This document shows positions 23,585-26,946 of a stretch of 39,464 nt of DNA, in pieces. Every line of letters starts with the position of its first letter. Position 1 is the stretch's first letter. The translations under genes and the position numbers were made by a program. Below the pieces are notes generated by a model. The model made no database searches. It saw nothing but the letters and a program-made list of their open reading frames with translations, and was not told the origin of the DNA. The stretch spans positions 4,883 to 44,346 of the forward strand of contig CAYSNO010000001.1 of assembly GCA_964432455.1 (NCBI GenBank). The letters are read 5' to 3'. This DNA is from an uncultured Candidatus Saccharibacteria bacterium. Lineage in GTDB: Bacteria; Patescibacteriota; Minisyncoccia; Phycocordibacterales; UBA918.

Positions 23585-23644
23585 GATGGCTTTATTGTAT
23601 CAGGCTTACGGAGGCGGATATTGTGAATACTGACCCGTACGGGG

Positions 23645-23673
23645 AAAAGGAAAGGCCGCCCGTTGGGGCGGCC
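23645..23673 (-). terminator. Intrinsic terminator
   Basis: GGCCGCCC/GGGCGGCC stem followed by TTTCCTTTT on the - strand. Confidence 0.7.
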
Positions 23674-23680
23674 GTGATCT

Positions 23681-23917
23681 TCAGGTGGGCTCCGCAGTGC
23701 CACAGAGTCCGTGCGGGCCAATTGGCCCCAGCGTTGCGTCATAGGTCAGACCGGCCACCGTGATGACGGTGTTGATCCTGCCACCGAGATCCCTGTGTGT
23801 TTGTGAGGGGTCGTAGACTCCTTCAACAGCCATATCGTCGAATTTGCCGGTGAACAGACAGGGTGTGAACCCTTCTTCGGTCTGGACTGGACCTAAAGCA
23901 CCTTCTGTGACAATCAT
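23681..23917 (-). CDS. Hypothetical 78-aa protein
   Basis: Strong SD GGGAGA 6 nt upstream. No TM helix and no recognisable domain. Second gene of a two-gene cassette. Confidence 0.6.
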   Translation of the reverse strand: MIVTEGALGPVQTEEGFTPCLFTGKFDDMAVEGVYDPSQTHRDLGGRINTVITVAGLTYDATLGPIGPHGLCGTAEPT

Positions 23918-23935
23918 ATGTCTTCTCCCTGGTTG

Positions 23936-24187
23936 TTATTGTGTGACGAGGTGCGAAAAGTCTTGGTTGGCGATTGGCTTGATGTAGACTCGGTCATCTT
24001 CCCGACCATCACCAAACAGCATTATCGCTTCAGCGTCACCTCCGACCACCTGGTAGCAGTCACCGAGGATGTGCTGCAGGTAGAGATGTGACCAGATTTC
24101 TTCCTCTTTTCGCCTGATCATCACTTTCACGAATGTGTCGCCTGGTTCCCCCGAGGCGGCTTTGCGCATTTGTGACACGAGTGCCAT
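23936..24187 (-). CDS. Hypothetical 83-aa protein
   Basis: Strong SD GAGGG 6 nt upstream. No recognisable domain. Confidence 0.6.
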   Translation of the reverse strand: MALVSQMRKAASGEPGDTFVKVMIRRKEEEIWSHLYLQHILGDCYQVVGGDAEAIMLFGDGREDDRVYIKPIANQDFSHLVTQ

Positions 24188-24245
24188 TTTTGTCCCTCAC
24201 TTTCATGCTGTTCCGTGACATACGCTACCAAATTGCCGTACCAAA

Positions 24246-24283
24246 AACAAGCACCGCGTGCCTTTGGCTCGCGGTGCTTGTTT
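24246..24283 (-). terminator. Intrinsic terminator (ancestral valS terminator)
   Basis: AAACAAGCACCGCG...CGCGGTGCTTGTTT. Confidence 0.8.
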
Positions 24284-24289
24284 CTTTAG

Positions 24290-24614
24290 TGATCTAGTGT
24301 GTGGGCCACCCACACGACTAATCAATCGTTTGCTGGAGACTGAATTCGAGTCTACGTTTGAGTTGTGCCAGAGCACGGCCACGCAATTTCAATTGCTGTT
24401 CTCGCTTTCGAGCATCAGGCTCTGCTGCATATGCTTCATAGTACAGCAATACCAGTGGGCGCCGTGGTTTGGTGGATTGTACGTCTCCAGCGTTATGTTC
24501 TTTTAACCGTCGCTTCAAATCGTTGGTTGAACCTACATATAGTTCATTATCTTTGATACTTCTGAGTATGTAGAGATAGAACATAACGAACGATTGATCT
24601 AGTGTGTGGGCCAC
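24290..24614 (-). mobile_element. GIY-YIG gene cassette bounded by 20-bp direct repeats at the valS stop codon
   Basis: TGATCTAGTGTGTGGGCCAC occurs at 24290-24309 and 24595-24614. A 10-bp inverted repeat ATCAATCGTT/AACGATTGAT lies just inside each repeat. Confidence 0.6.
24318..24584 (-). CDS. GIY-YIG nuclease family protein (small, stand-alone)
   Basis: FYLYILRS..LYVGSTNDLKRRLKEHN..PLVLLYYE motifs. Start set at MFYLYIL. The longer ORF reads through the duplicated valS tail. Confidence 0.85.
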   Translation of the reverse strand: MFYLYILRSIKDNELYVGSTNDLKRRLKEHNAGDVQSTKPRRPLVLLYYEAYAAEPDARKREQQLKLRGRALAQLKRRLEFSLQQTID

Positions 24615-26767
24615 GCGGCGACCATGAGCATATCGGCGTCTTTCATGTGAGCCGGGAGCTCCTGCCAGATGGTCTCGGTCACAAACGGCATAAATGGATG
24701 GAGGAGCTTTAGCGACGTCACGAGGTAGTGGGTGAGCATCCGCTGGCGGGATGCGCGTTCAGCTGGTGTGCCAGCAAGAAGTACCTTACTCTCTTCAATC
24801 ACCTGGCTTGCAAAGTGATCCCACACGAAGTGATAGATCTTTTCGGCAGCAAGGTCAAAGCGGTCTTTGGCCATCTCGGCATTGATCTCGGCGACCATTG
24901 GGTGGAGGAATTCGTTTTCGAACTTGGTATCAGCCTCAGTGTGCTCCACAGGCGGCATGTAGTCTGCGGTGTTATCAAGCACAAAGCGGGTGATGTTCCA
25001 GAGCTTGTTGGCAAACTTCTTGTGCGCGTTGACCTTATCGGGGTCGAGGTTCATGTCTGTCCCGGGCACGTTGTTCATCATAAGTCCCATGCGTAAAGCG
25101 TCGGTGCCGTACTTTTCTTGAATCTCACTTGGGGCAATCACATTGCCTTTACTCTTACTCATCTTCTTCCCGTGCTTATCACGCACCATACCGTGGAGGT
25201 AGACTTTCTTGAATGGTACTTCACCGGTACGGTAGAGACCGAGCATCACCATCCGGGCTACCCAGAAGAAGAGGATGTCCTTACCAGTTTCCATCACTGC
25301 GGTTGGGTAGAAAGTTGTGAAGTCATTACTCGCGCCAGTATAGTCGGTGACACAGAGCGGCCATTGCCCAGAGGAGAACCACGTATCAAACGTATCTTGT
25401 TCTTGTTCAACCTGGCCACCACACTTGGTACAGGTGGTGATGGAGTCGTTGAGGTCAACCATACCGTGATGACAGTCGATACAAACTTTGGCTGGGATTG
25501 GTATACCCCAAGCGATTTGGCGCGCAATTGGCCAATCTTCGATATTCGTGAGCCAGTGGCGATACACCCGCTCATCGCGCTCGGTCACAAAGGTGTAGCG
25601 ACCAGCATCGAGCGCCTCAAGCGCCTTTGCTGCCAATGGCTTCATATTGACGAACCACTGTTCTTTGATCTGGGGTTCAATTTCACGACCACACTTGTAG
25701 CAGCAGGGGACAGCGTGGTGGTACTGCTCGTCGATTTTGACGAGGAGGCCTTTTTCTTTGAGCTTTTCAACGATAAGCTTGCGGGCATCACGAATATCTT
25801 GTCCGGCAAATTCACCAGCAATCGGGAGAAGCTTGCCACGCCAATCGATGATCTGTTCGTAGTCGAGGTTGTGTCGCTTTGCAATTTCAAAGTCGATACC
25901 CGAGTGCCATGGGGTGATGGTCATCACACCGGTACCCATTTCTGGGTCACCGGCTTCATCTTTAATCACAGTGGCGGTAATTGGGCCGTTGATCCACTCC
26001 AGTTCAATCTTCTGACCATGCTGGTACTCGGCATAGCGCGCATCGTCTGGGTGCATGACCACGTACTTGTCGCCAAACTTGGTCTCTGGTCGCGCGGTAC
26101 CAATCACAAATGGCCCATACTGAAAGTAGTAAAACGGTTCGGTGCGTTCCTCGTGTTCTACTTCGAGGTTTGAGAACGAAGTCTGGTGTTTTGGACACCA
26201 GTTAGAGGAACGGGCACCGCGGTAGAGGAGTCCATCGGTCTCAAGTTGCTTAAAGGTGTCATAGACGATTTTCTTCACGCGATCATCAAGCGTGAAGAGA
26301 GCGCGCGACCAGTCACACGAGGCACCCAAGGAACGGATTTGTCCCTCCATAAATGACTTATTCGAGAGCGTAAAGTCGAGGATTTCGGCGTAGAGTTCTT
26401 CGCGGGTCATCTGAAAGCGAGAGCGACCTTCTTTTTCGAGTTTCTTTTCGTACACCACCTGCGTCTCAAAACCAGCGTGGTCCGCACCCGGGAACCAAAC
26501 CGCTTTTTTGCCCTTCATACGTTCGTAGCGGAGCATGATGTCTTGGACGGTCACAAAGAGCGCGTGGCCGGCATGGAGTGAACCATTGGCATTTGGTGGC
26601 GGCATCACAATCGCAAACGGCTCGGTACGGTCGCCGGGGAGATTGTCCGGATTGAAGTAGCCTGAAGCCTCCCACATCTGGTAGATACGGTCTTCGTGAT
26701 CGCCTGGATTATACGGACTGGTAAAGAGGGTCGGGGTGGTACTTTGACCTTGATTTTGCTCGTTCAT
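24599..26767 (-). CDS. valS: Valine--tRNA ligase
   Basis: YNP..ED..Y..WE, PPPNANGSLHAGHA (HIGH) and KMSKSKGN motifs. Start moved to MNEQNQ: TGcTACGAT (hexamer 26777-26782) lies 9 nt upstream. Confidence 0.95.
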   Translation of the reverse strand: MNEQNQGQSTTPTLFTSPYNPGDHEDRIYQMWEASGYFNPDNLPGDRTEPFAIVMPPPNANGSLHAGHALFVTVQDIMLRYERMKGKKAVWFPGADHAGFETQVVYEKKLEKEGRSRFQMTREELYAEILDFTLSNKSFMEGQIRSLGASCDWSRALFTLDDRVKKIVYDTFKQLETDGLLYRGARSSNWCPKHQTSFSNLEVEHEERTEPFYYFQYGPFVIGTARPETKFGDKYVVMHPDDARYAEYQHGQKIELEWINGPITATVIKDEAGDPEMGTGVMTITPWHSGIDFEIAKRHNLDYEQIIDWRGKLLPIAGEFAGQDIRDARKLIVEKLKEKGLLVKIDEQYHHAVPCCYKCGREIEPQIKEQWFVNMKPLAAKALEALDAGRYTFVTERDERVYRHWLTNIEDWPIARQIAWGIPIPAKVCIDCHHGMVDLNDSITTCTKCGGQVEQEQDTFDTWFSSGQWPLCVTDYTGASNDFTTFYPTAVMETGKDILFFWVARMVMLGLYRTGEVPFKKVYLHGMVRDKHGKKMSKSKGNVIAPSEIQEKYGTDALRMGLMMNNVPGTDMNLDPDKVNAHKKFANKLWNITRFVLDNTADYMPPVEHTEADTKFENEFLHPMVAEINAEMAKDRFDLAAEKIYHFVWDHFASQVIEESKVLLAGTPAERASRQRMLTHYLVTSLKLLHPFMPFVTETIWQELPAHMKDADMLMVAAWPTH

Positions 26768-26800
26768 AGTAGTCGCATCGTAGCATGAAAAAGGCGTGAA

Positions 26801-26829
26801 ATAAAGAAAAGCCCGCGCAGACGCGCGGG
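26801..26829 (-). terminator. Intrinsic terminator ~110 nt after the tsaD stop
   Basis: GCCCGCGC-GTCT-GCGCGGGC followed by TTTTCTTT on the - strand. Confidence 0.75.
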
Positions 26830-26946
26830 CCAAAGTGGTCAGGCAGCCAGTCTACAGCTGATCAATCCGAGGCCACCCCCTGATGGGATCTTTGGGTTGA
26901 GACTGTACAGGTTCGGTGGCGTGCAGACCGCCGGTCCCGTCATGGG

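Follow-up and report, generated by a model that had tools for sequence, protein, structure and literature searches.

Stand-alone genes for small GIY-YIG proteins (UPF0213/COG2827), annotated as 'GIY-YIG nuclease family protein', are very common and pass for ordinary genes. UPF0213 genes are annotated as static genes like any other, and the UPF0213 structures 1ZG2 and 1YWL were deposited as hypothetical proteins. The Seg proteins of phage T4 are free-standing GIY-YIG homing endonucleases, and I-TevI is intron-borne; both have a DNA-binding domain apart from the catalytic one, and their spread relies on homologous repair, in which the flanks are co-converted. SLX1, which has a RING domain and works with the partner protein SLX4, cuts branched and flap DNA.

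The locus described here lies in a window of 39,464 nt, the whole stretch of DNA that was analysed, from a CPR/Patescibacteria metagenome-assembled genome of 640 kb in 61 contigs (G000). With homing endonuclease genes, the cassette at the valS 3' end shares the features of a selfish GIY-YIG gene that is present or absent at one locus among relatives and leaves decayed copies. It differs from them in being a bare catalytic domain with sharp boundaries, inverted-repeat ends and no intron. The flap- and branched-DNA cutting of SLX1 would suit an enzyme that acts at the foot of a stem. Insertion sequences, miniature elements and REP-RAYT systems resemble the cassette in their inverted ends with a conserved outer motif, the short direct repeats that flank many copies and their gene-less miniatures; moreover, several cassette copies per genome occur in some relatives, as with insertion sequences and REP-RAYT elements. 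Unlike insertion sequences, however, the cassette encodes a hydrolytic GIY-YIG enzyme as its only protein, not a DDE, HUH, serine or tyrosine enzyme, and the length of its flanking repeat varies from copy to copy. To our knowledge, its ~300 bp are also far below the size of any autonomous insertion sequence.

Two published arrangements are particularly relevant. The Ssn proteins (CDD family cd10448) are single-domain GIY-YIG nucleases that act site-specifically on single-stranded DNA, and their genes occur in an NTS-ssnA-NTS arrangement on whose insertion-sequence-like look the authors themselves remark, in a paper that also discusses REP elements and RAYT transposases (Chenal et al., 2025, Nat Commun 16:2388, PMC11893778). 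Like the Ssn genes, the cassette encodes a single GIY-YIG domain in the range of ~90-100 aa and is bracketed by sequences that can pair, and a GTC stands just 5' of its right-end palindrome, as in the NTS. In Ssn, there is a local hairpin on each side of the gene, whereas the cassette has one arm per side, and PMC11893778 describes no mobility, empty sites or gene-end replacement for Ssn. The Ssn-related pattern HGTCWYN(0-2)YYVSBRHN(0-5)WNVSBRGN(0-2)RNCYNB matched neither the window nor any flank of 192 family loci (0 hits). The second arrangement comprises non-intron GIY-YIG insertions in CPR 16S and 23S rRNA genes, which, in the accessible parts of the report, are judged to lie outside homing (Tsurumaki et al., 2024, J Bacteriol 206:e00074-24, PMC11270868). 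The protein family and the organisms are the same, and relatives of the cassette sit at 16S and 23S hairpin tips in this genus. In contrast, those parts of PMC11270868 make no mention of inverted repeats, flanking repeats or copies in protein genes, and the valS copy occupies the end of a protein gene. Literature searches found no published account of a GIY-YIG cassette that is bounded by an inverted repeat and has flanking repeats or replaces a gene end.

Layout of the valS 3' end and its nuclease gene

The 20-nt direct repeat TGATCTAGTGTGTGGGCCAC has two exact plus-strand copies in the whole window (Table 1), with 0 copies expected by chance (100 shuffles of the window), and no further copy was found in the rest of the window or in the 640-kb, 61-contig genome. 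The valS stop codon TAG (24599-24601) lies within the upstream copy, as an earlier note on this DNA had described, and the second, displaced copy, which that note put immediately before the terminator, stands 6 nt from the 18-bp terminator hairpin. The same note had named an 88-aa GIY-YIG protein as the only coding content between the repeats, and indeed the corresponding gene is the sole ORF there, leaving only about 35 nt of the cassette outside it. The 10-bp inverted repeat that it placed around the gene also exists, but forms only the inner portion of a repeat of 22 nt. On the minus strand, the valS 3' end reads GCG TGG CCC ACA CAC TAG. The ATG of the nuclease gene lies 14 nt 3' of the valS stop and its stop codon TAG falls within the right arm, followed by TCGTGTGGG, the repeat copy GTGGCCCACACACTAGATCA, the 6-nt spacer and the terminator hairpin. 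The displaced copy consists of TGG (24306-24308), 16 nt matching the left end of the cassette and a G that is shared with the right arm. Neighbours identified around the cassette are valS, prsW and tsaD; the true start of valS is probably an internal ATG (MNEQ...).

Table 1. Features of the valS 3' end in the window and related sequence landmarks.
Feature	Position	Strand	Sequence or remark
valS ORF (valyl-tRNA synthetase)	24599..26833	-	PF00133 tRNA-synt_1 E 2e-116; PF08264 Anticodon_1; valS-end comparison
Left inverted-repeat arm	24589..24610	-	CCCACACACTAGATCAATCGTT; contains valS stop; outer motif CCCRCACAC common to family
GIY-YIG nuclease ORF, 88 aa + stop	24318..24584	-	Pfam PF01541
Right inverted-repeat arm	24309..24330	-	AACGATTGATTAGTCGTGTGGG (cassette sense); 21 bp paired with left arm
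Direct repeat copy 1	24595..24614	-	Junction of valS and cassette left end
Direct repeat copy 2 (displaced copy)	24290..24309	-	TGG + 16 nt + one G
Intrinsic terminator	24245..24283	-	18-bp hairpin, then T-run; common to valS and cassette
Right junction			GTC-GTGTGGG-TGG-CCCACAC
Relic-type valS site			TGGCCCACACACTAGATCA

The 3' ends of valS from 30 related genomes revise the point of insertion, which the earlier note had put exactly at the stop codon. In most relatives, valS ends in W-P-K-(S/N/V)-stop. The cassette is inserted after the Trp codon TGG, two to three codons before the valS end, and it replaces the last codons: the current ending Pro-Thr-His-stop (CCC ACA CAC TAG) is encoded by the left arm, which is a substitute C-terminus and stop for valS. 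The old valS terminator now ends both valS and the nuclease gene. No promoter-like site was found 5' of the nuclease ORF, and a nuclease gene riding on valS transcription fits both this result and the common terminator. The search for further cassettes that the earlier note had proposed was run on G000 and found no other copy, with different flanks or otherwise; the remaining two GIY-YIG paralogues of this genome are 47% and 36% identical. Within the window, the motif CCCNCACAC has no match outside the valS cassette locus. A link to a gene-less tRNA-Glu module in the window was considered and rejected, as the two share their architecture (a rebuilt gene end plus an antisense copy) but differ in their end sequences.

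Over residues 1-71, the encoded protein scores 63.1 bits with Pfam PF01541, for which the curated cut-off is 22.6 (E 3e-17). Among 27-30 relatives, Y5, Y16, G18, R26, H30, E62 and K66 are invariant or nearly so, and the catalytic-type residues Y5, Y16, R26, H30 and E62 are all present in the G000 copy. The dN/dS values of the nuclease ORF (0.04-0.14) imply that intact copies encode a protein under purifying selection. An AlphaFold model of the 88-aa protein (pLDDT 89.5) has its best fold matches in UPF0213 BH0048 and the SLX1 nuclease domain (TM 0.62, rmsd 2.2 Å), with I-TevI ranked next alongside the N-terminal domain of UvrC. Searching with the single sequence, the nearest solved relatives are EF2693 (1YWL, E 8e-6) and BH0048 (1ZG2, E 1e-5), and the family profile reaches 1ZG2 with E 9e-14. 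Given this significant similarity to solved members and the single domain of 88 aa, the protein belongs to UPF0213/COG2827. A second domain is absent and, consequently, an I-TevI-like reading of a long double-stranded target is unlikely. It would be more plausible for the protein to read DNA structure, or a single strand that bears a hairpin, the latter as shown for the Ssn nucleases (PMC11893778).

Horizontal entry into the valS 3' end

In the closest relative, G007, whose valS product is 97% identical over the C-terminal 266 residues, the site is empty. The gene ends in ...AAC TGG CCA AAA AGT TAA (TGGCCAAAAAGTTAA) and continues directly into AAACAAGCATCGCGAGCC, a terminator homologous to the one that follows the displaced copy in the window. 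The comparison of valS 3' ends suggested by the earlier note thus recovered the ancestral order that it had postulated, a valS stop followed by the terminator, and most of the relatives are likewise empty. Including four further valS-site copies from public collections (L147, L148, L149 and L068), the homologous site is filled in G000, L147, L148, L149, L068, G004 and G005. The six cassettes besides that of G000 adjoin valS genes whose C-terminal part is as low as ~52% identical. The copies of L147 and L148 are 98%, that of L149 85% and that of L068 70% identical to the G000 copy in amino acid sequence. G004 and G005 carry a 75%-identical cassette homologue at the same valS position, although their valS is only ~52% identical, and the two cassettes have independent frameshifts, each near the TKPRRP codons. 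Here, valS ends in TGGCCCGCACACTAG, and the old valS ends lie 3' of the cassette as TGGCCAACAAAATAG and TGGCCAACAAAGAACTAA. The contig with the G113 copy stops 3 nt past the nuclease stop. In G136 (L241, G136:C14, ~1500-1530), valS ends in TGGCCCACACACTAA GTCTCGTT with no nuclease gene, and prsW follows 40 nt on. As GTCTCGTT equals the 8 nt preceding the ATG in the G004 and G005 cassettes, this valS end looks like the solo relic of a lost cassette. A solo allele of the exact relic seen in G000 had 0 matches among the contigs of the genome collection.

Synonymous divergence sets the cassette apart from its host gene. Estimated from ~60 synonymous sites, the dS of the cassette is 0.25 between G000 and either L147 or L148 and 0.07 between L147 and L148. 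For the 1380 nt of valS adjoining the cassette, the corresponding values are 1.02 (G000-L147), 0.94 (G000-L148) and 0.78 (L147-L148), compared to 0.35 between G000 and the empty G007; cassette dS is therefore 4-11 times below that of the adjoining valS. Expressed as the proportion of synonymous differences, the cassette differs at 0.21 (~60 sites) and valS at 0.56 (~330 sites), a gap of ~6 standard errors. Divergence is back within ~8 nt upstream of TGG and ~9 nt past the right arm. Such a sharp transition at the ends of the inverted repeat argues that the cassette moved as a discrete unit and not within a recombination tract. According to these data, the cassette entered the valS 3' end of the G000 lineage horizontally, as a unit bounded by the inverted repeat, and we are highly confident that the stretch ~24309-24610 is one copy of a mobile cassette that moved in this way. 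The core proposal of the earlier note was that a minimal GIY-YIG gene standing on its own acts as a mobile cassette, placed between valS and the terminator that follows it. This proposal is supported by the empty site in G007, by the occupation of the same site in distant lineages with decayed copies, and by a cassette dS far below that of valS.

These observations bear on two other explanations of the locus. The nuclease gene could long have been an immobile neighbour of valS, since lost from some lineages, with the direct repeat as an old fixed duplication. The single copy in the G000 genome and a repeat that is found nowhere else there are in line with this view, yet it is highly improbable, considering that the closest relative is empty and has a valS end of the common WPK(S/N/V) type, that the dS of the cassette is 4-11 times below that of valS, a contrast that already contradicts a static gene, that the distribution in the genus is patchy, and that the repeat is perfect across 20 nt. 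Alternatively, the cassette could be a classical free-standing homing endonuclease gene that cuts the empty valS and is copied in by homologous repair, with the displaced copy as its right-hand homology arm. Every copy of the G000 subfamily with a nuclease gene, intact or decayed, occupies the same valS position, the pattern of gain, decay and loss (frameshifted copies, empty site) is like a homing-endonuclease cycle, and the length of repeat identity, 5 to 22 nt, follows the resident sequence. What makes homing a quite unlikely explanation is the lack of co-conversion, as 5 of the 9 valS nt next to the junction differ between G000 and L147, whose cassettes are 95% identical. Furthermore, the flanks in G004 and G005 (~52% aa identity) are too diverged for homologous repair, the 88-aa protein has no DNA-binding domain for a long target, and members of the family reside at many unrelated sites with short flanking repeats.

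Downstream of the locus, the interval between the valS terminator and prsW (window 23681-24187) differs among close relatives, of which L007, L008, L009 and L148 were compared. In the window, it contains two small ORFs, and G007 has at least the 83-aa one. In L008 and L009, prsW comes directly after the valS terminator, and the L148 flank, as far as it was compared, reaches a different terminator and has no small ORF.

The direct repeat and the inverted repeat

The earlier note had interpreted the 20-nt repeat as a target duplication, a reading that is not supported in this form: 16 of its nt are those of the left-end motif seen across the family, and the match length ranges from 5 to 22 nt in other copies. 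The left-arm sequence CCCACACAC-TAG is an end motif found family-wide, with CCCRCACAC-TAA in many members, and accordingly the sequence is part of the element and did not come from valS. The two sides of the insert have in common TGGCC (5-6 nt) in G004 and G005, TGGCCC in L149, 11 nt in L068, 20 nt in G000 and 22 nt in both L147 (3 mismatches) and L148 (no mismatch), so that only TGG(CC) is common to all valS-site copies. On these grounds, a plain target-site duplication of 20 nt was rejected, and it is unlikely that the duplication was made at insertion. In L147, the displaced copy is like the G000-type left end (ATCAAT) and unlike that of its own element (ATTAAT). Between a duplication that arose on insertion and a relic or end-like target, we lean towards the latter for the displaced copy. 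It might represent the left end of an earlier occupant, which would have been retained because valS uses its stop codon, with the present copy having landed beside it. Alternatively, the displaced copy might reflect an element that targets sequences resembling its own end. The sequence CCCRCACACTAR is not enriched in G000 (11 matches compared to 8 in the control).

The inverted repeat overlaps the direct repeat and in full comprises 22 nt per arm, forming 21 pairs with one bulge in each arm. When the seven valS-site copies were aligned, 99.3% of the cells of these 21 pairs were paired, and 8 pairs were altered on both sides, for example ATCAATCGTT/AACGATTGAT, ATTAATCGTT/AACGATTAAT, ATCAATGTCT/AGACATTGAT and ATCCTCATCT/AGATGAGGAT, a count that comes from only 7 sequences, which are related to each other. 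The observed values were reached in 0 of 500 shuffles, and controls in which the arms were slid against each other were 29-54% paired. At the level of the aligned sequences, these data show that the inverted repeat is kept by compensatory change. In the minimum-free-energy fold of the RNA, the inverted-repeat stem closes the nuclease ORF (z -7.2). The inverted repeat could be maintained for a role at the RNA level; the host genome encodes an RNase III. Two further candidate structures were rejected. For a local hairpin between the right arm and the displaced copy, no covariation was seen and pairing equalled that of shuffled sequences, and a group I or II intron or other known RNA is not indicated by any Rfam match up to E = 1 in the region 23600-25200.

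Taken as a whole, the exact empty site, the shared site in distant lineages, the contrast in dS, the decayed copies, the solo relic and the covarying ends make the valS locus one of the cleanest cases for mobility in at least one branch of the stand-alone GIY-YIG genes.

The wider family and how the cassette may move

Homologues were present in 75 of the 128 genomes of the genus, with up to 6 per genome, often at contig ends. The bracketing inverted repeat scored above the 95th percentile of mismatched controls at 104 of 187 loci from genomes and metagenomes. The outer ends, (A)CCC[CG]CACAC...GTG[CG]GGG(T), are shared, whereas the inner parts differ yet stay complementary. Insertion sites in the family comprise the hairpin tips of 16S and 23S rRNA, the 5' ends of tRNAs, start codons (with TATGA flanks), gene ends and TTGAC sites that look like promoters. 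Once the elements were cut back to their C/G core, 24% of the loci had a perfect 4-nt repeat in their flanks compared to 2.6% of controls, and 7% had a 5-nt repeat compared to 0.3%; the 4-nt repeats include TAAA, TTTA, TTGA, TCAA, CCAA and TGGG. Across the family, the flanking repeats range from 0 to 54 nt in length, which is a poor fit to a fixed staggered cut. Gene-less miniatures of ~85-90 nt with inverted ends of the family type were found at L230 (G058:C30), L244 (G058:C50) and L245/L266 (G005:C44), and the miniature in G005 has the same 16-nt right end, TGATTAGTCGTGCGGG, as the decayed valS cassette of that genome. The G000 subfamily is represented by a single copy in its own genome. Its 14-nt right end marks only 4 element sites in the 128 genomes (3 valS cassettes and one gene-less copy), in addition to 2 matches that are consistent with chance. 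The cassettes also matter for the annotation of CPR genomes, in which they alter the ends of genes, interrupt rRNA and tRNA genes and cause breaks in assemblies.

Our overall reading, which we hold with moderate confidence, mobility scheme included, is that of a tiny mobile cassette in which one single-domain GIY-YIG gene is enclosed by a 21-bp inverted repeat. In this scheme, the nuclease gene would be transcribed through valS read-through, and ribosomes ending at the valS stop, which lies inside the left arm, would open the stem 4 nt before the ATG. In single-stranded DNA, the two arms might pair, such that both junctions meet at the foot of the resulting stem. A nuclease like those of the SLX1, UPF0213 and Ssn kind, specific for structure, could then cut the stem base and target sites, and host repair or ligation would join the ends, leaving repeats of 3-5 nt. 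That the cassette's own nuclease is the driver of movement is a tentative proposal, to which we give somewhat less than an even chance. If it is correct, the cassette would represent mobile DNA of a new and minimal kind, and very small nucleases specific for a structure or a sequence could be drawn from it. The stronger version, an autonomous transposon-like element of ~300 bp whose mobility enzyme is the bare GIY-YIG domain, cutting the stem base and left-end-like targets while the host does the joining, we consider doubtful. GIY-YIG enzymes are hydrolases for which we know of no strand-transfer activity, so joining would rely on the host. Were this version true, the cassette would be the smallest self-contained mobile element and stand for a new enzymatic class of DNA transposition, and gene ends such as the valS stop would be replaceable without harm to the host gene.

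The nuclease might also be cargo. The cassette would then be passive and moved by the host, either by recombination at the ~20-nt repeat (for example by a tyrosine recombinase like Xer, with a folded single strand as its substrate) or by natural transformation, with the nuclease serving a cellular role of the Ssn type, in which it would cut single-stranded DNA with hairpins while DNA is taken up. The 20-22-nt identical repeats of G000 and L148 are like attL/attR cores, the host genome encodes one tyrosine recombinase, and Ssn nucleases have a host-level role in Neisseria (PMC11893778). We nevertheless regard a passive cassette as unlikely, since the repeat shrinks to TGGCC in G004 and G005, the outer motif and the gene travel together at ~100 loci with the nuclease as the only family-specific protein, the published Ssn-related flank motif occurs at 0 of 192 loci, and the hairpin of right arm and displaced copy lacks covariation.

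Several individual loci illustrate the range of arrangements in these genomes. On contig C49 of G000 (L003, 1212-1496), a third GIY-YIG paralogue of 94 aa with an REKQLK...NP.W motif follows the genes for 23S rRNA, tRNA-Ser and 5S rRNA. Inverted copies of CGTC(A/T)TTGC...GCAATCCAGG stand on both sides of it; they are similar to the Neisseria NTS (CGTCATTCCC...GGGAATCYRG), but the degenerate pattern as published does not fit them. On contig C8 of the same genome, near 7000, two tandem 32-nt hairpins, CCCGCACACC...GGTTGTGCTGGG, lie at ~1495-1575 of L255. They have family-type arms in common, differ in their loops and are each flanked by TCTA; these hairpins may be minimal gene-less derivatives in G000. 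In the same genus, cassettes occupy rRNA hairpin tips at L039, L040, L041, L051 and L064 (16S) and at L061 (23S). At the 16S site, AATACTTGATGGT|...|TAAAGATT, the stem of the cassette stands in place of a small native hairpin, which reads CTCTTCGGAG in an uninterrupted copy. Finally, related cassettes interrupt gapA and a Rossmann-fold gene within their first codons (L058, G023:C19; L062, G142:C21; L043, G116:C4). There, the 5' end of the host gene is duplicated around the cassette, over 54 nt without mismatch in L058 and over ~35 diverged nt in L062 and L043, and these 5'-end insertions are the mirror image of the valS case.
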